UHGV virus genome: UHGV-0114647
Source: a virus
Length of the DNA stretch: 17,667 bases
Direction: 5' to 3' (one strand)
The notes beneath the pieces were generated by a model. That model was given only the letters and a program-made list of their open reading frames with translations, was not told the DNA's origin and made no database searches. Every line of letters begins with the position of its first letter. The stretch's first letter is position 1. A program made the translations under genes and the position numbers. Of the stretch, positions 3,231 through 17,180 are shown piece after piece.

Positions 3231-3606
3231 AAATCAAATAAATTGGCTTAAAAACTATACTTTAGAGTGTGGCTCTTGTGAGAAAACTCACAGAAAATAT
3301 TCCTCATTCTATGTAGCCTACACATTGATGATAGATGAAGTGGTCATTGGTTCTGCTGAAATAGAAGGCTTCAACATCCCCCACTCGCTGTGTGGTAAAG
3401 TTTTGGTAGCAACGGGTACATGGTCAGATTCAGACGGCACAGATATTGGTGACATGTCTTTCTACAGCATTGAGCAAACAATGAATCCAAAGTATGTTGC
3501 TTTGATGACTCGTGCTCAGGAAGATGAACTGCTTCAGGAATTTATTAAAGAGCACTGTGAAGAGTACATCACAAAGCATGTGAGTTTTGAAGTTGAGGTG
3601 TACTAA
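3214..3606 (+). CDS. hypothetical protein (130 aa)
   Basis: ORF with GGAAAG upstream. Stop overlaps the nrdG start (TAATG), suggesting translational coupling. No recognisable motif. Confidence 0.5.
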   Translation: MTRLNKNQINWLKNYTLECGSCEKTHRKYSSFYVAYTLMIDEVVIGSAEIEGFNIPHSLCGKVLVATGTWSDSDGTDIGDMSFYSIEQTMNPKYVALMTRAQEDELLQEFIKEHCEEYITKHVSFEVEVY

Positions 3607-4091
3607 TGAACTACATGGAAATACGAAAATTCGATACAGCAAACGGTGAAGGTGCTCGTGTTAGTCTTTTTGTAGCTGGCTGCAAACACCACTGTGAAGG
3701 TTGCTTTAACAGGGAGTCTTGGAAGTTTAATGCTGGTAAAGAGTTTACTTATGCAAACCTTTATGGCATTATGCAGATAATGAATGATGATGGAATCAGT
3801 GGTCTATCTATCCTTGGTGGAGAACCACTTGATGATAGGAATGTTCAGACAGTAACAAATATCTGTAAGCGGATTAAAACCGTATACCCAGACAAATCTA
3901 TATGGTTATGGACAGGTTACCAGCTACATGAAAAAATTAACTTAGAAGTGATGAAATATGTTGACGTGGTAATAGATGGTAAGTATGATGCTTCTAAACC
4001 AACACACAAACCATATCGTGGGTCTGACAATCAAATACTTTGGAGAAAAGAATATGGCTGGCAAGGCGACTGTCAATGGAGAGCAGAATAG
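3606..4091 (+). CDS. nrdG: anaerobic ribonucleotide reductase activating protein NrdG (radical SAM)
   Basis: N-terminus MNYMEIRKFDTANGEGARVSLFVAGCKHHCEGCFN contains the Cx3Cx2C radical-SAM cluster motif. Size of 161 aa and placement near nrdD fit. Confidence 0.85.
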   Translation: MNYMEIRKFDTANGEGARVSLFVAGCKHHCEGCFNRESWKFNAGKEFTYANLYGIMQIMNDDGISGLSILGGEPLDDRNVQTVTNICKRIKTVYPDKSIWLWTGYQLHEKINLEVMKYVDVVIDGKYDASKPTHKPYRGSDNQILWRKEYGWQGDCQWRAE

Positions 4092-5539: not shown

Positions 5540-5810
5540 AGAACAATGGGATATCAAAGAGCTAATTAGCGAAGCTGGAAATGGTAGTGAGATGTATATG
5601 ATACGTGGTCACGTCCCAGATGCACTTGCTATTGAGATGATAGACCACTACTCCAACGGATTCTATAAAGAGTTTGGAGAGCCAAATATTGAACGTACTT
5701 GGACAAAACCAGTACCAGACGGAACAGGAAACTGTTCAGTTATCTACCATATTGTAGACCCAAAGAAATGTAAATCAGCTATGGCTGTAACATTTGTAAC
5801 TTTTGATTGA
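5532..5810 (+). CDS. hypothetical protein (92 aa)
   Basis: ATG at 5532 overlapping the upstream gene by 8 nt. No recognisable motif. Confidence 0.4.
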   Translation: MAREQWDIKELISEAGNGSEMYMIRGHVPDALAIEMIDHYSNGFYKEFGEPNIERTWTKPVPDGTGNCSVIYHIVDPKKCKSAMAVTFVTFD

Positions 5811-5820
5811 GAGAAATATT

Positions 5821-6702
5821 ATGAAAACTACTATTCGAGTTCTACTTAATTCAAATTCCAAAGGTTCTCATCAAGAGACCTTCAACATTATCCAGTTCCC
5901 TTCTGGGGAGATTGGTGGTAACTTCTCAGAAGACTTAGTAGACTTTGCTGAACATGCTGCTGGTAAGATTGAAAACGTAATATTCACTGTACAAGGTTAT
6001 GACAAAGACACACTCTTTGCATTGGCTATGGCTAAAGAAGCAATTGACCGTTTGATTCCTCAGAAAGCAACCCTGAAAACTGTTGTCTTTGGATTCTTAC
6101 CAAATGCTCGCTATGACCGTCACATGTTTAAAGGTGATGCAGCAGCACTTAAAGTCTTTGCAAATCTTGTAAATGCTATGGAGTTCGATGCAGTATGTGC
6201 TCTGGATACTCACAGTAATGTTGCAGAGAATTTGTTTAAGAGCTTCTACAACCTCCCTCAAAAAGAGGCAGCAGTCCACTTTGCAAGTGACCCACGCATT
6301 GATTACTTAGTGGCTCCAGATGCAGGTGCAGCTAAGAAGACTGAAGAGGCTGCTAAAGAGGTTGAGAAACCTTACATTACAATGGCTAAGGTACGAAACC
6401 TGAAAACTGGTGAAATCACTGGTATGCGAATCCTTGATGATGTAGACTTGACAGGTAAGACCATCATGATTCTGGATGATATCTGTGACGGTGGTCGAAC
6501 ATTTATCGAGGCTGCAAAGTATCTTCGTGAAGCTGGAGCAGAACGTGTAGAACTGTATGTCACTCATGGGATTTTCTCTAAAGGTGTTGAAAATCTCCTT
6601 GACAATGGTATCGACCATATCTACACTACAAACTCACTAGGGGATGAAAAAGACCGTGGTCTTTCCCACTTCTCACAAGTGACCGTAGCAAATATTGAAT
6701 AA
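5821..6702 (+). CDS. ribose-phosphate pyrophosphokinase family protein (Prs-like); candidate ADP-ribose pyrophosphokinase
   Basis: Prs-family landmarks in order: FGFLPNARYDRH (compare FPYxxYARQDR), LDTHS (compare DLHA), LVAPDAGA (compare VVSPDxGG), and the PRPP-binding loop ILDDICDGGRT (compare DDMIDTGGT). Divergent from housekeeping Prs at several of these conserved positions. Confidence 0.8.
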   Translation: MKTTIRVLLNSNSKGSHQETFNIIQFPSGEIGGNFSEDLVDFAEHAAGKIENVIFTVQGYDKDTLFALAMAKEAIDRLIPQKATLKTVVFGFLPNARYDRHMFKGDAAALKVFANLVNAMEFDAVCALDTHSNVAENLFKSFYNLPQKEAAVHFASDPRIDYLVAPDAGAAKKTEEAAKEVEKPYITMAKVRNLKTGEITGMRILDDVDLTGKTIMILDDICDGGRTFIEAAKYLREAGAERVELYVTHGIFSKGVENLLDNGIDHIYTTNSLGDEKDRGLSHFSQVTVANIE

Positions 6703-6708
6703 AAACTT

Positions 6709-6726
6709 TAGGGGCTGAAAGCCCCA
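6709..6726 (+). other. intergenic hairpin GGGGCT-GAA-AGCCCC without a clear U-tract
   Basis: Perfect 6 bp GC-rich stem 20 nt upstream of the NAMPT-like start. Near-identical hairpin recurs at 11570-11587. Confidence 0.4.
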
Positions 6727-6745
6727 CTTTGAGAGAGATAAAAAG

Positions 6746-8572
6746 ATGACTAAATCAATCTATGCAGTACCAGCAGGTCTTAATGCAGATGCTTATAAAG
6801 CGGGTCATATCTATCAGTATCCAGATGCTACACAGTATCTTATGTTGAACTTAACACCTCGTGGAGATAAATGGTTTAACTCTCCGTTAGAGATTGATGG
6901 TGTTGTAGCTTTTGGTATTCAGCGTTTTGTAAAAGACTATCTGGTAGACCACTGGAATGCAACGTTCTTTGAACGTGATAAGAAAGAAGCCATTGACGAA
7001 ATCTTGGAAATCATGAATGGTGTCCTTGGTGCAGATACTATTGGTCGTCAACATTGGGAAGAACTTCATGACTTGGGTTACCTACCTGTTGAAGTCTACT
7101 CTGTAGAGGAAGGTACAATTGTCCCTATGCGTGTCCCGATGATTGTCTTCAAAAATACTGTAGAGGGATTCCATTGGGTAGCTGGTTACCTTGAAGATGC
7201 TTTCTCTGCTGAAATCTGGAAAGCTTGTACGATTGCAACTATTGCACTGCATTACAAACGTATTTGTAAGCAATGGGCTGATTTAACCTGTGACAACGAC
7301 TCCCATTTACCTTGGCAGTGTCATGACTTTGCAATGCGTGGCATGTCTGGCTTCACAGATGATGCGTTTAACGCAGTAGGACACCTGACAAGCTTTAAAG
7401 GTACTGACAGCTTCCCTGCTGTCTACACTGCTAAACGTTCTTATGGTCAGTTTATGGAAGTAAGTGATATCGGCAACTCTGTACCAGCTACTGAACACTC
7501 TGTGATGTGCGCAAACATTTCATGGAATATGAAAGACTTGTCAGAGGAAGATATTCATTCACAGTACATCATGCGGTCTGATAGCTTGCTGGATGCAAAA
7601 CGTTGGCGTGGTGAGGTTAAAACCTTTGAGCATTTACTGGTAGACGTATATCCAACTGGTATTGCAAGTGTTGTTTCAGATACTTACAACTTCTGGCGTA
7701 CTGTTACAGAGATTCTGCCAGAGCTACGTAATGTAATTCTGAATCGTGATGGTAAGTTGGTAATTCGTCCAGACTCTGGAGACCCTGTTCACATTGTTAC
7801 AGGTTACAAAGCCGTTGAATGGGAAACTGCTAAGTCAATGTTCTACAAGCACATGAAAGGTCTTGCACCAGATAATACCCATCTGCATGACACAATCTTG
7901 AATTGTGAAATGTCTGATATTGGTTTTGGGTTCTCTGCTTGGTTAATCTCTGAAGGTTATGAGATGGTTGTTGAAAATGAAGATTTTGATTATATTGATA
8001 CAATCAACCTGATTACCGCTCAGAAAACTGGACAGTTTACTGTGAAGCGTATGTTAACAGCAGAAATTGATGGAGCTATCCACACGCTGTATAACATCTT
8101 TGGTGGTACTGTTAACTCCAAAGGGTACAAAGTACTGGATGAGCACATTGGACTAATCTACGGTGATTCTATCACTCTGGAAAGGGCTAATGAGATTCTG
8201 TCACGTCTTGCTGATAAAGGTTTTGCAAGTTCTAACGTAGTGTTTGGTGTAGGCTCATACACCTATCAGTACCTGACTCGTGACACCTTTGCATTTGCTG
8301 TTAAAGCAACTCTTGCACAGATGGATGGTCAAGAAATTATGCTGGCTAAAGACCCTAAAACTGACAGTGGTCTTAAGAAGTCTGCTTTTGGTGGAGTCGT
8401 CCCTATGTGGGATGGTGACAAGCTAGTAGCTGTAGATGGTTTTGGCTTTGCAGAGTTTGAAGGTGCAATTGACAATTGTCATAGTGCTTTGAAACTGGTA
8501 TTTAGTAACTCGCAACCTTATGGTTACGTTAACCTGCGTGATGTTCGAAATACTATTGACAAGCAACTTTAA
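6746..8572 (+). CDS. nadV: nicotinamide phosphoribosyltransferase family protein (NAMPT/NadV-like), 608 aa
   Basis: N-terminal DAYKAGHIYQYP (compare NAMPT DSYKxxHxxQYP); HDFAMRGMSG...HLTSFKGTDS (compare DFGYRG...HLVNFKGTD); VVSDTYNF; VIRPDSGDP; NSKGYKVL; GDSIT; FGVGSY; LTRD. About 100 aa longer than typical NAMPT. Confidence 0.8.
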   Translation: MTKSIYAVPAGLNADAYKAGHIYQYPDATQYLMLNLTPRGDKWFNSPLEIDGVVAFGIQRFVKDYLVDHWNATFFERDKKEAIDEILEIMNGVLGADTIGRQHWEELHDLGYLPVEVYSVEEGTIVPMRVPMIVFKNTVEGFHWVAGYLEDAFSAEIWKACTIATIALHYKRICKQWADLTCDNDSHLPWQCHDFAMRGMSGFTDDAFNAVGHLTSFKGTDSFPAVYTAKRSYGQFMEVSDIGNSVPATEHSVMCANISWNMKDLSEEDIHSQYIMRSDSLLDAKRWRGEVKTFEHLLVDVYPTGIASVVSDTYNFWRTVTEILPELRNVILNRDGKLVIRPDSGDPVHIVTGYKAVEWETAKSMFYKHMKGLAPDNTHLHDTILNCEMSDIGFGFSAWLISEGYEMVVENEDFDYIDTINLITAQKTGQFTVKRMLTAEIDGAIHTLYNIFGGTVNSKGYKVLDEHIGLIYGDSITLERANEILSRLADKGFASSNVVFGVGSYTYQYLTRDTFAFAVKATLAQMDGQEIMLAKDPKTDSGLKKSAFGGVVPMWDGDKLVAVDGFGFAEFEGAIDNCHSALKLVFSNSQPYGYVNLRDVRNTIDKQL

Positions 8573-9184: not shown

Positions 9185-11557
9185 ATGCGCATGGTAAATG
9201 ACCACGCAACGGTAATTAAAAGCTCAAGTACACTGGAAACCTCTCAGGCTCAAATTAAGATGACACCTGAAATGTTCAGTCTTCTAAGCTCAGGTGTTTA
9301 CACATATAAAGAACGTGCTGTAATTCGTGAGTTATCATGTAACGCAGTAGATGCTCACATTGATTCTGGTAATGTTGATAAACCTTTCTTGGTTCACTTA
9401 CCAACTCGTTTTGAACCATTCTTTGAAGTTCGTGACTTTGGTACAGGGCTGACTCATGAAAAAGTTATGAAACTTTACATGACCTATGGAGAATCCACAA
9501 AGAACGATTCAAATGACTACATTGGTGCTATGGGTATCGGTTCAAAGTCACCATTTGCAATTGCTCAGTCATTCACTGTATCGAGCTATGTTGATGGTGT
9601 AGTTAACAAATACTCAGTTTACCTTGAGAATGGTATCCCTCAAGTAACTAAGTTGACTACTAACCCAACTACAGAGCCAAATGGTTTAGCTGTTCGAGTA
9701 GCGGTATCTGATAACCGTATTAACAAGTTTCATGAAGAAGCGAGCAATGTATACTCGTACTTTAAAGTTAAGCCAGAGTGTAATGTTGAGTACTATGACA
9801 TTCTTGAAGCAATGACTTCCATTTCTCGTGAAGATGGTGTCTATGATGCAATGAAGTACAAAGAGAACTGGCGTTCAAATAGTAACAGTGTCCATTTCAA
9901 CGTAATCATGGGTAATATTGCTTATCCTGTTGAAATGGGTGAGTTGCTTGGTTCAGAGTTTACAAGCATTCTGCCTCAGTTCTTCCGTAGTGCTGTAGAC
10001 CTTGTTAACATCTACATGCCAATTGGTTCAGTGGCTATTGCTGCATCCCGTGAAGCGTTGCAGATGAATGAGACTACTAAGACCAAGATTGTTGAAGCTG
10101 TGAAGAAAATTACTAAGACAATCGTAGAAGATGTGGTAAAAGAGATTGCTAATAAGCCAACTCTTATTGATGCTGCACAGGCTTACGATACCATGAGGAA
10201 AGAGGCTCGTGAAATCTTTAATCACGTCCAAGATTCTCTGGAATGGCAAGGCCAGAACTTGAAAAAGCTTGAACAGAAACTATTAGGTATTCGTCGTGGT
10301 CAGTTAACTGAAGCAGATGGTTCTCCGTCATTCTTGAAAGATGATGCAGGTAACTTGCGGCTTGACAAAGATGGTAATCCAGTTCCTAATATTGGTAATC
10401 TGTATGAACCTGTAGCATACTACAAGTACAGCAGTCTGGAGAATCGTATTCGAGCAACTTCAGCAACTTATTCACAAGATGCAGCAATGTTTAGTATCTT
10501 TGGTGCAATGAGTAAAGATAAGTTGAGCAACTATTTGTTCCTTATCAATGACCGTCGAAACAAAAACGGGTCTGAAAAGACAACTGGTAAAAACCAGATT
10601 ATACGTGGAGCTTGCCGTGACCGTGAACAGGAAGACTCTAACTTCCGTCGCTACAATGGTATTGCTTTCTTGTTCAGTAGTCAGCAGCAATTTGATGAGT
10701 TTGTAGATTTACATATGCTTGACAAGAGTCTGTTAAGTGTGCATACAATGTCATCTAAAGAGCACCACTATGAAAAACGTACTATTGTACGTGGTGTTGT
10801 AAAACTGTATAAAGCATTTATATGTCCAAATACTTACATGATTCGTTATACAGAGGTTAAAGAGAACTTTGATGAGATTGAAGAACCACAACTGTATATC
10901 AAAGCACAGAGTGATGAAGTGATTGGTGGAATCTTCTCATGTTCACCAGAACGTGCTGCAACGTTGATGACAGAGTTAACTGGACAGTCAGTTTATGTCT
11001 TCCGTAAAGCCAACTGGAAAAAGATTCCTGAAGACTGGACAGAAGTCAATGAACAAGTAATGAAAGATTTTATTGATAACACTCATTGGATTGAGTATCA
11101 TCGTTACTTGACTCACCAATATATGACTAATAATCATGATATCACTGATTGTAATGTGATTTCTCGAAACTTTATGTTTGCTGATAAGCGTAAGTCCAGA
11201 GGCCACATTTACAGTAAAGACTTTAAGAAGACTATTTTCTTAGAGGGGAATGAAGAGGCTATAGAAGCAATGTTTGGACGCTTGGCATATACTGCTGCAC
11301 CAGTTGCTTACAAAGATATTACCAGCACTCTTGATACCATCCGCAGGAATATGAGAGGCTCTTGTAAGCCAAGAAAGGTACTGGATAATGCTAAGAAGCG
11401 TCTTGAAAGCAAGTTCAAAGATTACTTTGAGAAACGCCGTAAAGAAAACTTCTTGCTTTCTAATCTGGATTGGAATAAAGTATCACCCGTCGAAGTTGGT
11501 AAGTTTTTAGGTTTTAACACTAAGAGCATCCCAGAAGATACCAACTGTTGGGAATAA
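9185..11557 (+). CDS. rIIA: rIIA protein (membrane-associated, GHKL-type ATPase N-terminal domain)
   Basis: N-terminus FSLLSSGVYTYKERAVIRELSCNAVDAH carries the GHKL N-box (E-L-x-x-N-A-x-D-A), and NDYIGAMGIGSKSPFA the G-box. Both segments closely track T4 rIIA as recalled. Size of 790 aa fits. Confidence 0.8.
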   Translation: MRMVNDHATVIKSSSTLETSQAQIKMTPEMFSLLSSGVYTYKERAVIRELSCNAVDAHIDSGNVDKPFLVHLPTRFEPFFEVRDFGTGLTHEKVMKLYMTYGESTKNDSNDYIGAMGIGSKSPFAIAQSFTVSSYVDGVVNKYSVYLENGIPQVTKLTTNPTTEPNGLAVRVAVSDNRINKFHEEASNVYSYFKVKPECNVEYYDILEAMTSISREDGVYDAMKYKENWRSNSNSVHFNVIMGNIAYPVEMGELLGSEFTSILPQFFRSAVDLVNIYMPIGSVAIAASREALQMNETTKTKIVEAVKKITKTIVEDVVKEIANKPTLIDAAQAYDTMRKEAREIFNHVQDSLEWQGQNLKKLEQKLLGIRRGQLTEADGSPSFLKDDAGNLRLDKDGNPVPNIGNLYEPVAYYKYSSLENRIRATSATYSQDAAMFSIFGAMSKDKLSNYLFLINDRRNKNGSEKTTGKNQIIRGACRDREQEDSNFRRYNGIAFLFSSQQQFDEFVDLHMLDKSLLSVHTMSSKEHHYEKRTIVRGVVKLYKAFICPNTYMIRYTEVKENFDEIEEPQLYIKAQSDEVIGGIFSCSPERAATLMTELTGQSVYVFRKANWKKIPEDWTEVNEQVMKDFIDNTHWIEYHRYLTHQYMTNNHDITDCNVISRNFMFADKRKSRGHIYSKDFKKTIFLEGNEEAIEAMFGRLAYTAAPVAYKDITSTLDTIRRNMRGSCKPRKVLDNAKKRLESKFKDYFEKRRKENFLLSNLDWNKVSPVEVGKFLGFNTKSIPEDTNCWE

Positions 11558-11636: not shown

Positions 11637-12749
11637 ATGACTACTAAGACTAAAGCACAAATCGACGCAGAAATCTATGCACTGGTTAAAGAAGGTAAAC
11701 TGACCAAAACTGCAATCGCTCTGAAGTATAACACTTCAACCCGTTCGGTAGGTCGTGCTGTAGAGCGTCATGAAGCAACGCTGCTGTCAGGGAAAACCAA
11801 AGCAAAACCTGAAAAGACTCTGAAAGATATTGCAAAGAAAGCTAAAGCGACCAAGAAAGTATCTAAGCAGAAGCCTGTTGCAAAAGCTGTTAAAGAAGCA
11901 GTCAAAGCAGAACCTGTAAATGCTCTGCATGAAGCAATGCAGAAGAACAGCCAGATTGAGTACATGATTACTGGTGATTCTGTTATCATGACTTTCGGTG
12001 CAGAGTCTGAGATTGTTGAGTCAACTCACCCTAACTACACTGATATTGTAATGGCTGTTGTTTCAGGTGAGTACAAGAAAGCTTTTGAACTGATGAACAT
12101 TCGCAAGTCTATTGAGAACTTCACTCAGGGTGCTGTAACCATCAAAGGCGACAACCTGTATTACGGTGCTGTTCAGATGCGCTCAACTCTGGTAGACCGT
12201 ATTCTGGATATGATGAAGAAAGGTGATAATGGTTTTGTTCGACTGATTGCATTCTTCGAAAAACTGATGGAAAACCCATCAAAAGATTCTGTAGAACAAC
12301 TTTGGGGCTTTGTATCACACCTCGATGTTGAAATTGATGAAGAAGGTTATATCATCGGTTGGAAGAAAGTCACAACTCGTGGTGGTAAACTGTTTGACTC
12401 TCGTACCTGCAAAGTTCCAAATGATTTGGGTAACATTGTAGAGATGCCACGTTGGATGGTTGATAATAACCGCCATGTAACCTGCTCTCAGGGTCTGCAC
12501 GTTGGTGCTTGGAATTATGTAACTAGCTTCTCTGGTGACACTATCCTGAAAGTTCGTGTTCATCCTCGTGATGTTGTTTCAGTACCAACTGACTACAACG
12601 ACATGAAAATGCGAGCTTCCCGTTATGAAGTTGCAGCGATTGTAAATAGTCGCCGTGAAGTCATCAAAGAGTGGGATGGTTCAGAAGCACTCCACGTAGT
12701 TGTAGGTACTGCTGGTGAACTGATTTCTCAGCGTAAACGTGAAGTCTAA
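11637..12749 (+). CDS. rIIB: rIIB protein
   Basis: Immediately downstream of rIIA in the same orientation, as in T4. N-terminal region has the helix-turn-helix-like pattern expected for rIIB. Assignment is by synteny plus weak recalled similarity. Confidence 0.55.
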   Translation: MTTKTKAQIDAEIYALVKEGKLTKTAIALKYNTSTRSVGRAVERHEATLLSGKTKAKPEKTLKDIAKKAKATKKVSKQKPVAKAVKEAVKAEPVNALHEAMQKNSQIEYMITGDSVIMTFGAESEIVESTHPNYTDIVMAVVSGEYKKAFELMNIRKSIENFTQGAVTIKGDNLYYGAVQMRSTLVDRILDMMKKGDNGFVRLIAFFEKLMENPSKDSVEQLWGFVSHLDVEIDEEGYIIGWKKVTTRGGKLFDSRTCKVPNDLGNIVEMPRWMVDNNRHVTCSQGLHVGAWNYVTSFSGDTILKVRVHPRDVVSVPTDYNDMKMRASRYEVAAIVNSRREVIKEWDGSEALHVVVGTAGELISQRKREV

Positions 12750-12765: not shown

Positions 12766-12793
12766 GGGGCTGCTTCGGCAGCCTTTTTTATTT
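12766..12793 (+). terminator. rho-independent terminator after rIIB
   Basis: GGCTGC-TTCG-GCAGCC hairpin followed by TTTTTTATTT. Confidence 0.65.
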
Positions 12794-12819
12794 GAAAAAT
12801 GTGCAGGTTAGTGTATAAT
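12792..12819 (+). promoter_or_regulatory. sigma70-like promoter
   Basis: TTGAAA at 12792-12797, 16 nt spacer, perfect TATAAT at 12814-12819. AGGAG RBS at 12841-12845 follows. Confidence 0.5.
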
Positions 12820-12850
12820 TGTCTGCATGTTTAACAAAATAGGAGTGCAA

Positions 12851-13399
12851 ATGAAGAAATTTGTTTTAGGTTTGTGCTTATTCTTTACAGCACATTTAGC
12901 TACAGCGTCTGACTGTCCAGAGCTTACAATCAGTCAGAAAGTTAATATGTTAAAAGCATATAACTATGGAGAAGGACAGATGGGAAAAGGTTGGGGAATC
13001 CCTTTAGCAGCTATAGCCTTACAAGAGTCACAATTAGGTGTCATGTTAGAAAATAAAAAGACTCATGATTATGGTGTTTTCCAAAATCACTTGAAGACTG
13101 TTGTAAAGCGTAACAAGGTATCTCCAAAGGTTGCTAAGAAGAAGCTAGTAAGCGACTTCCATTACTCAGCGAAAGAGGCTCATAAGGAGCTATTATTCTG
13201 GACTAAGGTTCATGGTAACCCAGATGGAAAGTACTCTATGAAGCGTGTCCTAGCTTCTTATAATGCTGGTTACAAATACAAGATTCCAAAGGCTAGACAA
13301 TACTCTCAAGATGTGTACAATAACATGAAACTGCTGGCTCAATGTGAGTTTGCAACAAACATTAAAAAGGTAAAATATGAGCGAATCAAAACAATTTGA
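12851..13399 (+). CDS. secreted lytic transglycosylase-like protein (SLT domain) with N-terminal signal peptide
   Basis: ATG at 12851. Signal peptide MKKFVLGLCLFFTAHLATA. SLT-like motifs AAIALQESQLG (catalytic Glu-Ser), DYGVFQ and ASYNAGYKY. Confidence 0.55.
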   Translation: MKKFVLGLCLFFTAHLATASDCPELTISQKVNMLKAYNYGEGQMGKGWGIPLAAIALQESQLGVMLENKKTHDYGVFQNHLKTVVKRNKVSPKVAKKKLVSDFHYSAKEAHKELLFWTKVHGNPDGKYSMKRVLASYNAGYKYKIPKARQYSQDVYNNMKLLAQCEFATNIKKVKYERIKTI

Positions 13400-14072
13400 C
13401 ATGGTTCTGTGTCATGCTTATGATATCAAGCCACTTGATTTAGATATCAGTTCTGCAAGTTGGCCAGATATTGCTAAAGCTGACTTTGCAGATACAGCAA
13501 GAAATGTTGTGTGTAGCTTTGAAGACTTCCACTCAACAAAGACACAGATTCCTTGTCAGGATTTGCTAACAGGTAAAACTGTATATGTTGGTCGTAATAG
13601 TCTTATCTTGGTTGCAAAGAACTTGGAAGAAAAACGTAAAATGGTCTTAGCAGACATTGATGGTGTTCTTACAAGCTTTGACAAGAAACTTAATGCAACT
13701 CTGTTAGATGACGGCACTTACTCACAGTATACTAACTTGGTAGACTCTCGCAGAGCTAAACCAACATATGTTTTTAACATCCTGTGTGGTATATCAAGAA
13801 ATGCTGATATAGGATTCTTAACTGCTCGTGGAGAATCACAAAGAGTTGTCACACATCTTTTCCTGAATGAGAATGTAGACAGTGATTTCCTACTGTTTAT
13901 GCGTGGATTTGGTGACAATGAGATTAGTGCAGAAAGTTTAAAAGTTCGTATGCTTCAGTCTTGCATTCTACCTTACTATGATGTAGTATGCTTTATAGAA
14001 GATACAGTGAAGAACGTGGCAAAGGTTGAAAGAATCTTACCACACATCAAAACAATGCTTGTTAAAAACTGA
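13377..14072 (+). CDS. hypothetical protein with HAD-like motif I (possible phosphatase/nucleotidase)
   Basis: MVLADIDGVLTSF resembles HAD motif I (hhhhDxDx[TV]); later GFLTARGE could be motif II. No P-loop, so not a Pnk kinase domain. Confidence 0.45.
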   Translation: MSESKQFDMVLCHAYDIKPLDLDISSASWPDIAKADFADTARNVVCSFEDFHSTKTQIPCQDLLTGKTVYVGRNSLILVAKNLEEKRKMVLADIDGVLTSFDKKLNATLLDDGTYSQYTNLVDSRRAKPTYVFNILCGISRNADIGFLTARGESQRVVTHLFLNENVDSDFLLFMRGFGDNEISAESLKVRMLQSCILPYYDVVCFIEDTVKNVAKVERILPHIKTMLVKN

Positions 14073-14083
14073 GAGAGTAAACC

Positions 14084-14548
14084 ATGCAAAACATTATTAC
14101 AGTAGCTATCGATGCTTCCGGTAACAAATCACAGGTAGTTCGTGAGATTATCAAAAGTAATTTCGATGGTAAAATCTTTCGTGCAGTAAACGTGAAAGCT
14201 GATGGTAACATTCGTGAGTATCGTGCCATGTTGAATGTCACAAAACACGTTAAGGGTGTTGGTTCAACTACTGCTCATAAAGAAAATCTGATGACTATCT
14301 ATGATATGGGTATGGCTTCAGAGTTAGGTGCAAAAGGGATTGTACAATCCGGTGCTCCTTACCGTTCTTTCAATCTGGAAACTGCTCTTATGCTTTCCTT
14401 TACAAGTGGTTCTCAAACTACCACTTACCTCTTCACAGATACTGCAACGGTTTCTGCGATTAAGGACAATACCATTAAGGCTGGCGTAGCTGCTGCTTCA
14501 AAAGCCTCAACAATGGCAGCAAATGTCCTTGCGAAAGTTCTTGGTTAA
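14084..14548 (+). CDS. hypothetical protein (154 aa)
   Basis: GAGAG RBS upstream of the ATG. Followed by a strong terminator. No recognisable motif. Confidence 0.5.
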   Translation: MQNIITVAIDASGNKSQVVREIIKSNFDGKIFRAVNVKADGNIREYRAMLNVTKHVKGVGSTTAHKENLMTIYDMGMASELGAKGIVQSGAPYRSFNLETALMLSFTSGSQTTTYLFTDTATVSAIKDNTIKAGVAAASKASTMAANVLAKVLG

Positions 14549-14557
14549 AGTTATTAT

Positions 14558-14585
14558 AGAGGCTCCTTCGGGAGCCTTTTCATTT
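14558..14585 (+). terminator. rho-independent terminator
   Basis: GGCTCC-TTCG-GGAGCC hairpin followed by TTTTCATTT. Confidence 0.6.
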
Positions 14586-14601
14586 ATGTAAGGGGTATAT
14601 T

Positions 14602-14703
14602 ATGATTAAAGTTATCAAGATAATACCATCATTGGTAATGCTCATAGTAGGGGTAGGTATCATACTTATGCTTTGCCCTGCTTTTTGGCCTTTTATCTTA
14701 TAA
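14602..14703 (+). CDS. putative micro-protein, single TM helix (33 aa)
   Basis: Below the ORF-track cutoff. AAGGGG at 14590-14595, ATG at 14602. Translates to MIKVIKIIPSLVMLIVGVGIILMLCPAFWPFIL. Confidence 0.3.
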   Translation: MIKVIKIIPSLVMLIVGVGIILMLCPAFWPFIL

Positions 14704-14722
14704 TAGTCTAGGAGATTGACAA

Positions 14723-15070
14723 ATGACATTCAAAGAATTTTGTCAAGCAGCTTTTGTAATCATGTTTTTGTTAGGTGTAGGTGCTTGGGGTGGCTATACT
14801 TACAAGACTAGCCAAGTTAACGAGAAAGAGTTGACTAATCAGAAGCTTGTTAGTGTTGCTAAAGATGCTTATCAAGAAGGTTTATCAAATCTTAGCTCCA
14901 ATTACAAAAATGATTTGAAAGATGTGCTTGCTAAAAACAAACACACCAAAGAGGTATTGAACTATGAAAAAACTAAAACAGTCTTTATTAATGATTGTGC
15001 TACTGAGCCTTATGTCAGGGTGTTCAACGAACAAAGTGAACAGTACCTTCAAAAACTCCCAAGTAAGTGA
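14723..15070 (+). CDS. i-spanin-like protein (N-terminal TM anchor, periplasmic domain)
   Basis: AGGAGA RBS at 14709-14714. N-terminal TM helix AAFVIMFLLGVGAWGGY followed by a charged, coiled-coil-like periplasmic region. 115 aa, with a lipoprotein gene embedded in another frame at its 3' end. Confidence 0.5.
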   Translation: MTFKEFCQAAFVIMFLLGVGAWGGYTYKTSQVNEKELTNQKLVSVAKDAYQEGLSNLSSNYKNDLKDVLAKNKHTKEVLNYEKTKTVFINDCATEPYVRVFNEQSEQYLQKLPSK

Positions 15071-15233
15071 GAGTGACAAGTACACTCAAGAAGAAGCACG
15101 ATATGAAGTTAAAAGCACTAAAGGCAGAGATATTGCAAGTGCTCTTGAGTTTTATCGTGATGGCTACTATGAATGTACTATTAAGGCAAACAATTTAATT
15201 GATATGATTTTGTTAGGGAATAAACAGCAATGA
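14964..15233 (+). CDS. o-spanin-like outer-membrane lipoprotein
   Basis: AAAGAGGT RBS at 14948-14955. Lipoprotein signal MKKLKQSLLMIVLLSLMSGC with Ser at +2; mature part has a C-terminal Cys. Overlaps the preceding gene by about 107 nt in a different frame. Confidence 0.5.
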   Translation: MKKLKQSLLMIVLLSLMSGCSTNKVNSTFKNSQVSESDKYTQEEARYEVKSTKGRDIASALEFYRDGYYECTIKANNLIDMILLGNKQQ

Positions 15234-16191: not shown

Positions 16192-16384
16192 TTTCTGCAC
16201 TAAGTGTTCTGTTGAGATGTTTGGAAAAGACACAGGGGACTTAAAAGGTCTCTTTACAAAAGCAGAGTTTGAAGCTGGTTCAGCAATGCCAGTAATCTGT
16301 GAAGGTTGTGGTGCTTTATGGGTAGACCATGAAGGTAACCGAGTTAAACCATCTGAAGATAACGAACGTTGGGAGCATTACTAA
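16184..16384 (+). CDS. small zinc-ribbon protein (66 aa)
   Basis: AGAGGT RBS. Two Cys pairs, CTKC and CEGC. Overlaps both flanking genes. Confidence 0.45.
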   Translation: MADFCTKCSVEMFGKDTGDLKGLFTKAEFEAGSAMPVICEGCGALWVDHEGNRVKPSEDNERWEHY

Positions 16385-16385
16385 T

Positions 16386-17180
16386 ATGGGTATCGTAAAA
16401 ATTATTAAAGGTGATATCTTTAAAGACTTTGATGGTAAGAAGTTTGATATCATTGGTCACGGTTGTAACTGTATGAACTTGATGCCAGCAGGTATCGCAG
16501 CAACAATTGCCAAACGTTACCCAAAAGCTTATGAAACTGACGCTGAAGTTTATGCTGCAGTAGGTGGTGAAAATCATAACCCTAAGCATCTAATGCTTGG
16601 TAACATCTCTGTAGCACGTTTTAAGCAGGGTCGAATTGCTAACCTTTACACTCAGGTTATCACTGGCAAAGATGCACGATACAACGCCTTAGAAGCAGCT
16701 TTACAGCGTCTTAACAACTACTGTAAAGTTAATCAACTTAAGAAAGTTGGGCTTCCGATGATTGGTGCAGGGATTGGTGGTCTTGATAGCATGGCTGTGC
16801 TGTCCATTATCAACCAGACTATGAAGGATGTTGACGTTTATATGTATGTCTATGAAGATAAGATGTACAGTCAGTTGACTAGTCCTGTTACTGGTTGGGA
16901 GAACTTCAGTGAGCCTCAATACTTTGATGGTGTTGCTGTGGTAGGCAAGGATAAAGTTACCCTCAAGGTGAAGCGTAATGGCAAGGTACACACCAGTTAC
17001 CCTCCGGTTGAGAAGTACAATCGGAGTAACGCTCAAGTTACCCACCCGTTACAAGGCCACCACCACAGAGCGGTAACGTTTGGTGATGATGCAAGTGTAT
17101 ATATCAATGCGACTACAGAAGAGTTTGCAGAAGATTATATCACACATGAAAACGTAAACTATGTTGAAGCACGTAACTAA
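16386..17180 (+). CDS. macro-domain protein (ADP-ribose binding/processing) with C-terminal extension
   Basis: N-terminus MGIVKIIKGDIFKDFDGKKFDIIGHGCNCMNLMPAGIAATIAKRYP matches the macro-domain opening (GDI-[TF]...D-x-I-V-N-A-A-N...G-G-V). Later GLPMIGAGIGGLD resembles the phosphate-binding glycine-rich loop. Confidence 0.6.
   Translation: MGIVKIIKGDIFKDFDGKKFDIIGHGCNCMNLMPAGIAATIAKRYPKAYETDAEVYAAVGGENHNPKHLMLGNISVARFKQGRIANLYTQVITGKDARYNALEAALQRLNNYCKVNQLKKVGLPMIGAGIGGLDSMAVLSIINQTMKDVDVYMYVYEDKMYSQLTSPVTGWENFSEPQYFDGVAVVGKDKVTLKVKRNGKVHTSYPPVEKYNRSNAQVTHPLQGHHHRAVTFGDDASVYINATTEEFAEDYITHENVNYVEARN

Follow-up and report, generated by a model that had tools for sequence, protein, structure and literature searches.

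A HAD phosphatase gene labeled polynucleotide kinase in Ounavirinae phages encodes a predicted kinase-less relative of T4 Pnkp

Gene organization around the HAD phosphatase gene

The window analyzed here is the whole 17,667-nt stretch of the viral genome UHGV-0114647, which is approximately 99% identical to Shigella phage SFPB (Mooglevirus), a Felix O1-like phage of the Ounavirinae. On its plus strand, positions 13377–14072 hold a genuine open reading frame (ORF) that starts with ATG and encodes 231 amino acids followed by a stop codon. The RefSeq record of phage SUSP1 uses the same ATG (13377), while the SFPB annotation starts at an in-frame ATG at 13401 instead. The sequence AAGGT lies 8 nt upstream of the 13377 start, and the eight-residue leader between the two starts is retained in homologues. 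The full-length protein matched PHROG 3970 (E 3e-127), and tblastn found the gene in 302 phage records, equal to the number of records with a major capsid protein of at least 60% identity (also 302). Within the Ounavirinae, it is a core gene. The ORF call, PHROG match, tblastn search and RefSeq record agree on a complete ORF, in which an N-terminal orphan domain is predicted to precede a Pnkp-type HAD phosphatase domain. GenBank, RefSeq and PHROG label the product as "polynucleotide kinase" or "PseT 5'-kinase/3'-phosphatase".

The HAD gene lies in the middle of a three-gene block. The upstream gene (12827–13399, plus strand) overlaps its start by 23 nt and encodes a T4 Vs.1 homologue of PHROG 600 with a signal peptide and the motifs of a soluble lytic transglycosylase (SLT; ES, GVFQ and YNAG). 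Erwinia phage records name this gene RegB, which would form a RegB-Pnk pair as in T4. We rejected this name because of the signal peptide, the SLT motifs, a weak SLT Pfam match, the lack of a RegB match and the match to T4 Vs.1, a transglycosylase. The downstream gene (14084–14548, plus strand) belongs to PHROG 2267 and directly follows the HAD gene in the window, SFPB/SUSP1, Pistou and Wc4-1; in two more distant loci, L007 and L008, the HAD gene has a PHROG-2267-like ORF in its vicinity but not next to it. A search of the PHROG 2267 protein against PDB sequences gave only a spurious match to a designed repeat protein. A candidate sigma-70-like promoter (TTGAAA-16-TATAAT, 11/12; 12792–12819, plus strand) precedes the block and a terminator-like GC-rich hairpin with a T-rich tail (14558–14589, plus strand) directly follows its third gene, both by consensus match only. 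Neither of its operon partners, one a transglycosylase-like periplasmic protein and the other of unknown function, points to nucleic-acid metabolism. A NARP1 pair (5803–8572) and a macro-domain protein (16329–17180) are encoded on the same genome arm. A spanin pair lies two genes downstream of the HAD gene; in T4, pseT adjoins the spanin genes pseT.2 and pseT.3.

Conserved motifs and predicted fold of the C-terminal domain

Searched alone against Pfam, NCBIfam, PADLOC and PDB sequences, the target protein gave a sub-threshold Acid_phosphat_B match and noise only, so that family profiles were needed. A word-indexed protein search recovered eight close clusters only, and the distant relatives came from an exhaustive search of representatives. 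The DIDGVLT motif at residues 93–99 (13653–13673, plus strand) places a HAD domain in the C-terminal two thirds of the protein, at approximately residues 86–231 (13632–14069, plus strand). Its occurrence goes beyond chance, given the PHROG match, the 302 records, the residue invariance and the HAD-fold model. Residues Asp93, Asp95, Gly96, Thr99, Thr149, Arg151, Lys189, Glu208 and Asp209 are invariant among nine cluster representatives, down to 39% identity, and the D93-I-D95-G-V97 segment is also invariant in nine more distant relatives. All residues that would perform the chemistry (the nucleophile, the acid-base, the Ser/Thr, the Lys and the metal ligands) are invariant down to approximately 30% identity.

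The AlphaFold2 model is confident (pLDDT 87.6, pTM 0.85), and every one of the 28 PDB structures that Foldseek matched to it at E ≤ 1e-3 is a HAD-fold phosphatase or a HAD-like domain. The core looks capless, and its structural neighbors are nearly all HADs directed at macromolecules or membrane lipids (Pnkp, lipin/LNS2, MDP-1, CTDNEP1 and TIM50). Judged from the motifs and the predicted fold, residues 86–231 are a genuine HAD/DxDxT phosphatase domain. The original prediction had assigned the C-terminal half of the protein to a HAD-type phosphatase of unknown specificity, and this general call holds: motifs, PHROG 3970 and the model agree, the predicted fold is that of a HAD, and homologues keep the motif I aspartates. 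Structure prediction, which it had proposed as a check for a Rossmann-like HAD core and cap, gave a Rossmann-like alpha/beta core that looks capless.

Alignment with T4 Pnkp matched the conserved residues to its catalytic set. Asp93 and Asp95 of motif I correspond to T4 Asp165 and Asp167; Thr149 and Arg151 of motif II (T149-A-R151; 13821–13829, plus strand) to Ser211 and Arg213; Arg176, in an invariant LFMRG motif (13902–13904, plus strand), to Arg246; Lys189 of motif III (13941–13943, plus strand) to Lys258; and Glu208-Asp209 of motif IV (13998–14003, plus strand) to Asp277-Asp278. Arg176 is invariant as well. In T4 Pnkp, Asp277 is a Mg2+ ligand together with Asp278. The nucleophile of the T4 enzyme is Asp165 and the acid-base is Asp167, and catalytic roles are also described for Ser211, Lys258 and Asp278, the last of which is a Mg2+ ligand (PMC3592404). 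The two substitutions in the target have precedents among 24 kinase-fused Pnkps, ten of which carry Thr at the Ser211 position and nine Glu at the Asp277 position.

Placement in the T4 Pnkp phosphatase family

The fold and profile comparisons pointed to the same family. In the Foldseek search of the PDB, T4 Pnkp and Pnkp1 occupied ranks 1–21 (E 2e-7 to 2.5e-5); the entry for the T4 phosphatase domain on its own (5uj0) superposed with a target-normalized TM score of 0.80 and an rmsd of 2.5 Å. The HAD-subfamily profile search that had been proposed as a check pointed to 3'-phosphatases of the T4 Pnkp type: when hhalign compared the C-terminal domain with the phosphatase domains of the 24 kinase-fused Pnkps, including T4, the probability was 99.8% (E 1.1e-28, 121 columns). 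When the family profile was compared with the PDB, Pnkp1 was the best match (E 0.016), and residues 78–219 gave weaker matches to three further "polynucleotide kinase" PHROGs. The window protein alone had no match to PF25109 (HAD_PNKP) at E ≤ 0.1. Its 39%-identical relative (P0008) scored above the gathering score of this family (33.6 versus 27.6 bits), and two other relatives scored under 27.6 (P0002, 17.5 bits; P0006, 14 bits). In the exhaustive HMM search of 1.84 billion representatives, the distant relatives were only stand-alone HAD_PNKP-like proteins of approximately 150 aa and kinase-phosphatases of approximately 300 aa. By profile-profile comparison, which was decisive, the target is a divergent member of the T4 Pnkp-type 3'-phosphatases that lies below the curated threshold for a single sequence.

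The original prediction had suggested a 5'(3')-deoxyribonucleotidase-like enzyme as one possibility, and the searches pointed away from it: there was no PF06941 (NT5C) match at E ≤ 0.1, and the deoxyribonucleotidase-like structure 3bwv ranked 45th. NT5C belongs to the same HAD superfamily and has a similar-looking motif I (DxDGVL), but T4 Pnkp matched at E 2e-7 and 3bwv at E 0.027.

An orphan N-terminal domain in place of the kinase

Residues 1–85 (13377–13631, plus strand) are predicted from the alignment, the model and hhalign to form a small beta-rich domain with an invariant H13-A14-Y15. The N-terminal 90 or so residues had been described as without recognizable match, and they stayed so in Pfam, NCBIfam and PDB sequences; a fold search of residues 1–88 returned nothing at E ≤ 1e-3 and no P-loop NTPase. 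The SH3 matches in this fold search were non-significant (best E 0.048), and an SH3-like label for the modeled domain is tentative. A Walker A or P-loop motif (GxxGxGKS) is absent from the whole protein, and hhalign of residues 1–85 with the 24 Pnkp kinase domains gave a probability of 0.6%. As judged by these sequence comparisons, the N-terminal domain is not a kinase but an orphan domain that is unrelated to the Pnkp kinase domain. Since the kinase half appears to be replaced by this small orphan domain, the database name "polynucleotide kinase" is, on the predicted domain content, wrong.

Departures from T4 Pnkp shared with kinase-less relatives

Outside the catalytic core, T4 Pnkp residues Arg176, Asp187, Arg213, Arg246, Asp254 and Arg279 are reportedly essential or polynucleotide-binding; Asp187 and Asp254 are said to be essential architectural residues, and Arg279 is reportedly one of two arginines that hold a sulfate, a presumed mimic of the penultimate phosphodiester. 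In the target, Arg213 and Arg246 are kept as Arg151 and Arg176, while Asp187, Asp254 and Arg279 are replaced by Ala127, Ala185 and Thr210; Lys104 replaces T4 Arg176 in a part where the alignment is uncertain. The T4-type C-terminal G-x-F tail, which is part of the dimer interface required for T4 phosphatase activity, is also absent from the target. Among the 159 sampled relatives, 135 are kinase-less. Of the 24 kinase-fused Pnkps, 23, 21 and 21 keep the residue at the Asp187, Asp254 and Arg279 positions, respectively, compared with only 87, 70 and 52 of the 135 kinase-less relatives. This lower retention suggests that the kinase-less clade may have switched to another substrate, and the replacement of all three equivalents in the target means that a nucleotide-type substrate is still conceivable.

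Partner genes and dispensability

Neither an RNA ligase nor a 5'-kinase is annotated in SFPB, the closest genome; PHROG annotation of SUSP1 genes agp015–agp138 revealed no RNA ligase, and ten larger hypothetical SFPB proteins matched no ligase or kinase PHROG. The T4 kinase domain, phosphatase domain and RnlA gave no tblastn match in SFPB and the window; this insensitive search also missed the true phosphatase homologue and is therefore not a valid negative. Because no ligase or kinase partner is annotated, the classical repair pathway is unsupported, although a very divergent ligase may have escaped these searches. The SUSP1 orthologue AVU07_agp084 (97% identical) was scored "Not Fit" with a fitness of -0.95 in CRISPRi-ART (PMC11879866, supplement 16), and the SUSP1 table files it under "translation" (PMC11879866). 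The gene is thus accessory, being subfamily-wide and dispensable on a laboratory host. In T4, pnk mutants grow normally on laboratory strains, and the gene is needed on prr+ hosts (PMC3014915).

Proposed function and alternative readings

Homology, fold prediction, motif conservation, the missing kinase domain and dispensability form the established basis for a functional reading. With about an even chance of being correct, in our judgment, the protein is a kinase-less T4 Pnkp-type phosphatase, most likely a Mg-dependent 3'-phosphate or 2',3'-cyclic-phosphate esterase that acts on nucleic-acid ends as an accessory gene product. For its catalytic activity, its substrate and the role of its N-terminal domain, we infer the following scheme. 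By homology, Asp93 would attack a phosphomonoester or 2',3'-cyclic phosphodiester to form an aspartyl-phosphate, with Asp95 as the putative general acid-base, Thr149 and Lys189 holding the phosphate, and Mg2+ presumably bound by Asp209 (with Glu208) and Asp93; water would then release the phosphate. The likeliest substrate would be a 3'-phosphate or 2',3'-cyclic phosphate at a nucleic-acid end, probably of RNA, and the blocked end would become a 3'-OH usable by polymerases, PNPase, poly(A) polymerase or the CCA-adding enzyme. As the annotations of the closest phages list neither a 5'-kinase nor an RNA ligase, T4-style heal-and-seal tRNA repair is probably not run, and the enzyme would more likely act alone on 3' ends. 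The N-terminal domain (residues 1–85), which sits where T4 has its kinase, may serve in substrate targeting or oligomerization. A T4 pseT mutant with only the phosphatase showed that taking off 3'-phosphates is enough to promote mRNA decay, presumably via PNPase (PMC3014915).

A possible but unlikely alternative is a phosphatase for small nucleotides, such as 3'-dNMPs, 3'-NMPs, pAp, ADP-ribose-1''-phosphate or the ADPR cyclic phosphate derived from ADPR-PP of NARP1, with the N-terminal domain as a pseudo-cap. T4 Pnkp itself hydrolyzes 3'-dTMP at 24 per second (PMC3592404), the equivalent of the putative phosphodiester-binding Arg279 is gone from the target and most kinase-less relatives, and the pTM of 0.85 implies a defined packing of the N-terminal domain onto the HAD core. 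A core that looks capless is nevertheless typical of HADs with large substrates, no nucleotidase family of Pfam was matched, and a deoxyribonucleotidase-like structure came only at rank 45. The genomic setting can be read in its favor as well: the NARP1 pair and the macro-domain protein lie on the same arm, the HAD gene and NARP1 occur together in four Ounavirinae genomes (SFPB, SUSP1, Pistou and the window), and Bas63 infections yielded an ion of ADPR cyclic phosphate (10.1101/2024.02.11.579819). However, the HAD gene and NARP1 were found in all Ounavirinae examined, including Kolesnikvirus, and since both are core genes of the subfamily their co-occurrence is uninformative and does not discriminate. 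The proposal that the protein acts on NMN, ADP-ribose phosphates or PRPP-type intermediates had only the NARP1 pair behind it, which lies 4.8 kb upstream, apparently in another transcription unit, with rIIA, rIIB and other genes in between; the link is conceivable, but none of the results supports it. The phosphatase described with NARP1 is a macro-domain protein, and the preprint makes no mention of a HAD (10.64898/2026.01.28.702374). A decidedly improbable extension is that the enzyme serves counter-defense or salvage and acts on a small ribose-phosphate molecule; it would, for example, open the cyclic phosphate of ADPR cyclic phosphate and take it off, or destroy a phosphorylated nucleotide immune signal. 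The combined cyclic-phosphodiesterase and monoesterase chemistry of T4 Pnkp makes salvage chemically conceivable (PMC3592404), and a macro-domain or candidate macro-domain gene and NARP1 accompany the HAD gene in the Ounavirinae genomes examined. If salvage were true, the enzyme and the nearby macro-domain protein would return ADPR to NAD+ reconstitution. ADP-ribose cyclic phosphate is a by-product of the NARP1 intermediate ADPR-PP.

After Pnkp, the Foldseek neighbors are Nir2 LNS2 (E 1e-4), lipin, MDP-1 and CTDNEP1, and the 39%-identical relative has a weak LNS2 Pfam match (E 0.064), which could suggest a phosphatase for a phosphoprotein (FCP/SCP or MDP-1 type) or a membrane lipid phosphate (lipin/LNS2) whose SH3-like N-terminal domain binds a protein or envelope target. 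Envelope- or lysis-related neighbors (rIIA/rIIB, the SLT-like periplasmic protein and the spanins) and the weak N-terminal fold matches to SH3, usually a peptide-binding domain, fit this picture, yet the similarity to SH3 does not reach significance, the profile placement with Pnkp is firm, and the lipin/LNS2 or protein-phosphatase HAD matches are 3–5 orders of magnitude weaker. Unlike its SLT-like neighbor, the target has no signal peptide or membrane segment, and the two genes are non-adjacent in locus L008; we consider this explanation improbable. A catalytically dead HAD fold with a structural or binding role would agree with the replacement of Asp187 and Asp254, essential in T4, and with the missing dimerization tail, but it is very improbable: the invariance of the chemistry residues to approximately 30% identity is the signature of an active enzyme, and the architectural residues vary in many other kinase-less relatives too. 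The bifunctional 5'-kinase/3'-phosphatase of the databases, repairing tRNA with a ligase, has in its favor the GenBank, RefSeq and PHROG names and a spanin pair two genes on, as T4 pseT lies beside pseT.2/pseT.3. We give it almost no credence, as it is contradicted by the sequence: the N-terminal domain has only 85 aa, neither the comparison with kinase domains nor the fold search revealed a kinase, no P-loop is present, and RNA ligase is not annotated in SFPB or SUSP1; the empty tblastn with RnlA and the kinase domain counts for little given its low sensitivity.

Comparison with known end-healing phosphatases

The best structural and profile match of the kinase-less phosphatase is the phosphatase of T4 Pnkp/PseT (PDB 1LTQ, 2IA5 and 5UJ0; PF25109), which has the same DxDxT acylphosphatase fold and catalytic set. 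Both proteins are phage-encoded, dispensable on laboratory hosts and located near spanin genes. T4 Pnkp carries a P-loop kinase at its N terminus, whereas the target carries an unrelated 85-aa beta-rich domain; the target also differs by a stretch of approximately 12 additional residues that separates motif I from the first helix and is common to many kinase-less relatives, by Ala127, Ala185 and Thr210 in place of Asp187, Asp254 and Arg279, and by the lack of a G-x-F tail and of an annotated partner RNA ligase. Stand-alone phage proteins of approximately 150 aa annotated as "PNKP phosphatase domain-containing" (such as JK_61P of Escherichia phage Jk06 and the PTXU04 "phosphatase") are likewise kinase-less HAD_PNKP proteins and uncharacterized. 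They share the long segment after motif I, and many vary at the T4 Asp187, Asp254 and Arg279 positions; in contrast to the target, they have no N-terminal domain and are only approximately 20–25% identical to it. The target clade has signatures of its own (TARGESQR, LFMRGF and CILPYY). A literature search on the Ounavirinae clade and on kinase-less Pnkps found no functional study.

Yeast Tpp1 and Arabidopsis ZDP are kinase-less eukaryotic DNA 3'-phosphatases of the DxDxT type, and in ZDP the phosphatase is preceded by zinc fingers that bind DNA. Both are members of the eukaryal PNKP branch with DNA as their substrate; their N-terminal domains are unrelated to that of the target, and phosphatases of this type were absent among the matches obtained. 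By analogy, they show that a phosphatase for end healing can function as a stand-alone enzyme. Another phage phosphatase found in NARP1-bearing genomes is Adpp, a macro-domain ADPR-1''-phosphate phosphatase that extends NARP1; a macro-domain gene is among the commonest NARP1-associated genes, and Adpp is defined by a macro domain (PF01661, PF14519 or PF20016) no more than two genes from Adps/Namat (10.64898/2026.01.28.702374). The target differs in having a HAD rather than a macro fold, and it lies 4.8 kb and at least five genes downstream of the Namat-like gene.

Implications

Hundreds of Felix O1-like phage genomes, including those of several therapy or typing phages, now carry the wrong name, and pipelines that count the gene as tRNA-repair capacity or "translation" are misled. 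Otherwise, the protein is fairly ordinary and would bring little surprise for specialists unless its substrate proves unusual. It offers a compact example of the Pnkp phosphatase module reused by phages without the kinase. The gene is core yet dispensable, a profile also seen in T4 pnk, dispensable on laboratory strains and needed on prr+ hosts, and genetic work in T4 hints that RNA decay can be steered by the removal of 3'-phosphates alone (PMC3014915).

A conserved gene of Ounavirinae phages

The window, 17.7 kb long, represents one arm of the genome of an Ounavirinae (Felix O1-like) myophage, and its plus strand carries every long ORF. These encode NrdD (386–2617), NrdG (3606–4091), a Prs-like protein of 299 aa (5803–6702), a Nampt-like protein of 608 aa (6746–8572), rIIA (9185–11557), rIIB (11637–12749), a 190-aa signal-peptide protein (12827–13399), the 231-aa protein studied here (13377–14072), a 154-aa protein of PHROG 2267 (14084–14548), the i-spanin and o-spanin (14723–15233) and, after several small ORFs, a 283-aa macro-domain protein (16329–17180).

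The 231-aa ORF is a real and conserved gene. Its product shares 99.6% identity with that of Shigella phage SFPB (genus Mooglevirus) and 97% with that of Escherichia phage SUSP1, and aligns with PHROG 3970 along its entire length (E 3e-127). The ORF and its motif DIDGVLT (residues 93–99, nt 13653–13673) lie where the original prediction had placed them; its observation of a HAD-type motif is confirmed, while its interpretation is supported only in part. The gene was found by tblastn in 302 phage records, the same number that carry a major capsid protein at least 60% identical to that of SFPB, which makes it in effect a subfamily core gene. When 1.84 billion representative proteins were searched exhaustively with an HMM, only 179 matched at E ≤ 1e-3, 10 of them at E ≤ 1e-10, indicating that the clade with the N-terminal extension is narrow. 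In Salmonella phage Meda, the orthologue is present as two ORFs of 122 and 108 aa (BFVD A0A385ITD4 and A0A385IS66), each named 'polynucleotide kinase', which suggests a frameshift, a sequencing error or a gene-splitting insertion.

A divergent member of the T4 Pnkp phosphatase family

This protein, which lacks a kinase domain and carries an orphan N-terminal domain, belongs to the phosphatase family of T4 polynucleotide kinase-phosphatase (Pnkp, PseT) as a divergent member. As a single sequence it gave one Pfam match, to Acid_phosphat_B, below threshold. A family member 39% identical to it scored above the gathering cutoff for PF25109 ('Polynucleotide kinase PNKP phosphatase domain'), and the top PDB match of the family profile was Pnkp1. 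The AlphaFold2 model, built from a 9-sequence alignment, is confident (pLDDT 87.6, pTM 0.85). When this predicted model was compared with the PDB using Foldseek, ranks 1–21 were occupied solely by T4 Pnkp and the RNA-repair enzyme Pnkp1 (best E 2.3e-7), with a TM score of 0.80 and an rmsd of 2.5 Å to the isolated T4 phosphatase domain (5UJ0). Other capless HADs (Nir2 LNS2, lipin, MDP-1 and CTDNEP1) came next; a deoxyribonucleotidase-like protein, a function suggested in the original prediction, appeared no higher than rank 45. The C-terminal profile was also aligned by hhalign with kinase-fused Pnkp phosphatase domains (24 proteins with an N-terminal P-loop from the exhaustive HMM search, plus T4 Pnkp from NC_000866), giving a probability of 99.8% and an E value of 1.1e-28 over 121 columns. 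Together, these matches establish homology of the C-terminal domain to the Pnkp phosphatase module.

In T4 Pnkp, the phosphoryl group is accepted by Asp165, which also binds Mg2+ together with Asp278; Asp167 serves as general acid-base, and the phosphate is contacted by Ser211 and Lys258 (PMC3592404). MAFFT and hmmalign concurred in mapping T4 D165, D167, S211, R213, R246, K258, D277 and D278 to D93, D95, T149, R151, R176, K189, E208 and D209, all of which are invariant within the family; the residues that carry the chemistry are still invariant in relatives of about 30% identity. Among the kinase-fused Pnkps, Thr occupies the S211 position in 10 of 24 and Glu the D277 position in 9 of 24. Zhu and colleagues reportedly found in 2007 that S211T and D277E are active in T4. 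Because the catalytic set is invariant and the T149 and E208 variants are common in kinase-fused Pnkps, the enzyme should, on its sequence, be catalytically competent.

Outside this set, the protein departs from T4 Pnkp at several positions. T4 D187, D254 and R279 are replaced by A127, A185 and T210, and the counterpart of T4 R176 is K104, in a poorly aligned stretch. A census revealed that D187, D254 and R279 are kept in 23, 21 and 21 of the 24 kinase-fused proteins but in just 87, 70 and 52 of 135 kinase-less relatives. In T4 Pnkp, R279 and R246 jointly bind a sulfate that stands in for the substrate's penultimate phosphodiester; with R279 lost, there is less reason to infer that polynucleotides are bound in the same way. 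The T4 C-terminal G-x-F tail is absent, and about 12 extra residues follow motif I, as in many kinase-less relatives.

Residues 1–85 form an orphan small beta-rich domain. Modeled alone, it is confidently predicted (pLDDT 82.8), with six short strands and three short helices, and H13-A14-Y15 is invariant in the family. A PDB fold search returned nothing at E ≤ 1e-3, the best matches being SH3 domains (E ~0.05, target-normalised TM ~0.6). Distant relatives of 200–250 aa keep a highly divergent N-terminal extension.

Genomic neighborhood

The start of the gene overlaps the upstream gene (12827–13399; in Erwinia phage Pistou, L005 5334–5846) by 23 nt. The latter encodes a T4 Vs.1 homologue of PHROG 600 with a Sec-type signal peptide and the lytic transglycosylase (SLT) motifs ES, GVFQ and YNAG. 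Its label 'T4 endoribonuclease RegB' in Erwinia phages is not supported, given the signal peptide, SLT motifs and Vs.1 homology. The label appears to be mistaken and may have been taken over from an adjacent gene, regB being a neighbor in T4. The PHROG 2267 ORF (14084–14548) directly follows the HAD gene in the window, SFPB, SUSP1, the Kolesnikvirus Pistou and Pectobacterium phage Wc4-1, and the whole three-gene block recurs in the last two. In the metagenomic relative L007, an SLT-like gene lies directly upstream and a PHROG-2267-like ORF three ORFs further down; in L008, which also has such an ORF near the HAD gene, the order differs and the genes of the block are not adjacent. The 154-aa protein has an Ala/Ser/Thr-rich C-terminus and gave no Pfam, NCBIfam, PADLOC or meaningful PDB match. 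By consensus match only, a promoter-like site (12792–12819, +) precedes the block and a strong terminator-like hairpin (14558–14579, +) follows it.

In T4 (L004 5003–6782, −), pseT directly adjoins pseT.1 and the spanin genes pseT.2 and pseT.3, and in the window (13377–15233, +) the pseT-like phosphatase lies two genes upstream of the spanin pair; this proximity may be left over from a common ancestry of the T4-like and the Felix O1-like phages. The phage encodes an ATP-dependent DNA ligase, about 19 tRNAs and a DUF2828 'RNA-binding' protein. The gene for this 471-aa PHROG 850 protein (SFPB L003 5271–6686, +; SUSP1 AVU07_agp131) lies outside the window, immediately upstream of the tRNA cluster, in which two tRNA-Lys genes occur. 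The protein may handle RNA in the manner of Ro/TROVE proteins; to link it with the 3'-phosphatase is purely speculative.

Alternative activities

The leading alternative to an enzyme acting on polynucleotides, though unlikely, is a phosphatase of small-molecule nucleotides or ADP-ribose (ADPR) phosphates. The original prediction had tied the gene to the neighboring NAD genes, yet an ADPR-phosphate substrate gained no positive support. The Prs-like and Nampt-like pair (5803–6702 and 6746–8572) corresponds to the NAD+ reconstitution pathway NARP1 (Adps and Namat). This pathway was initially shown in Felixounavirus Bas63, and there the names derived from Pfam (PRPP synthetase, Nampt) proved functionally wrong (10.1101/2024.02.11.579819); the SFPB GenBank names still carry the old functions. 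The phosphatase shown to extend NARP1 is the macro-domain enzyme Adpp (bioRxiv 10.64898/2026.01.28.702374), and the window holds its own protein of this domain type. The HAD gene lies 4.8 kb from the pair in a seemingly separate transcription unit. Since the pair is present in every Ounavirinae genome examined, its co-occurrence with the HAD gene is uninformative. The N-terminal domain of the macro-domain protein (16329–17180) matches Pfam Macro (E 9e-7) and PHROG 335 'phosphatase', and the protein is DarG-like in NCBIfam and PADLOC (E ~4e-13), with no match for its C-terminal extension of about 100 aa. It could be an Adpp-like ADPR-1''-phosphate phosphatase (anti-aRES) or an anti-DarT DNA de-ADP-ribosylase. 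A macro-domain ORF also lies downstream of the HAD gene in L007 (8868–9713) and L008 (7960–8406).

The other alternatives rank lower. A protein or lipid phosphatase is improbable. With the catalytic residues invariant, a dead enzyme is very improbable. Least probable of all is the bifunctional kinase of the annotation: no P-loop was found in residues 1–85, hhalign against 24 Pnkp kinase domains gave a probability of 0.6%, and the database name 'polynucleotide kinase' is a misannotation.

A possible role in 3'-end healing

The evidence best fits a stand-alone 3'-end-healing phosphoesterase, which would remove 3'-phosphates from nucleic-acid ends through an Asp93-phosphoenzyme and probably 2',3'-cyclic phosphates as well. 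An active Pnkp-type HAD phosphatase without a kinase is very probable, and the full statement, which adds a polynucleotide substrate, is about evenly balanced. Neither the SFPB annotation nor the PHROG-based one of SUSP1 genes agp015–agp138 lists an RNA ligase or a separate 5'-kinase, and ten larger hypothetical proteins matched no such PHROG. With neither kinase nor ligase, the protein could not complete T4-style tRNA repair. A precedent for phosphatase-only function is the T4 pseT1 mutant, which showed that removing 3'-phosphates is enough to accelerate mRNA decay, presumably because PNPase can then act on the RNA (PMC3014915). The orthologue is dispensable on the laboratory host: SUSP1 AVU07_agp084 was 'Not Fit' (mean fitness −0.95) in a transcriptome-wide CRISPRi-ART screen (PMC11879866, supplement 16). 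T4 pnk is likewise dispensable on laboratory strains (PMC3014915).

That a 3'-OH might also serve priming, CCA addition or polyadenylation is speculative. In Kolesnikviruses, a tRNA nucleotidyltransferase/poly(A) polymerase gene adjoins the DNA ligase gene (Pistou L018 2745–4013, −); the SFPB and SUSP1 annotations list no such gene. A CCA-adding enzyme requires 3'-OH ends, which a stand-alone 3'-phosphatase could supply.
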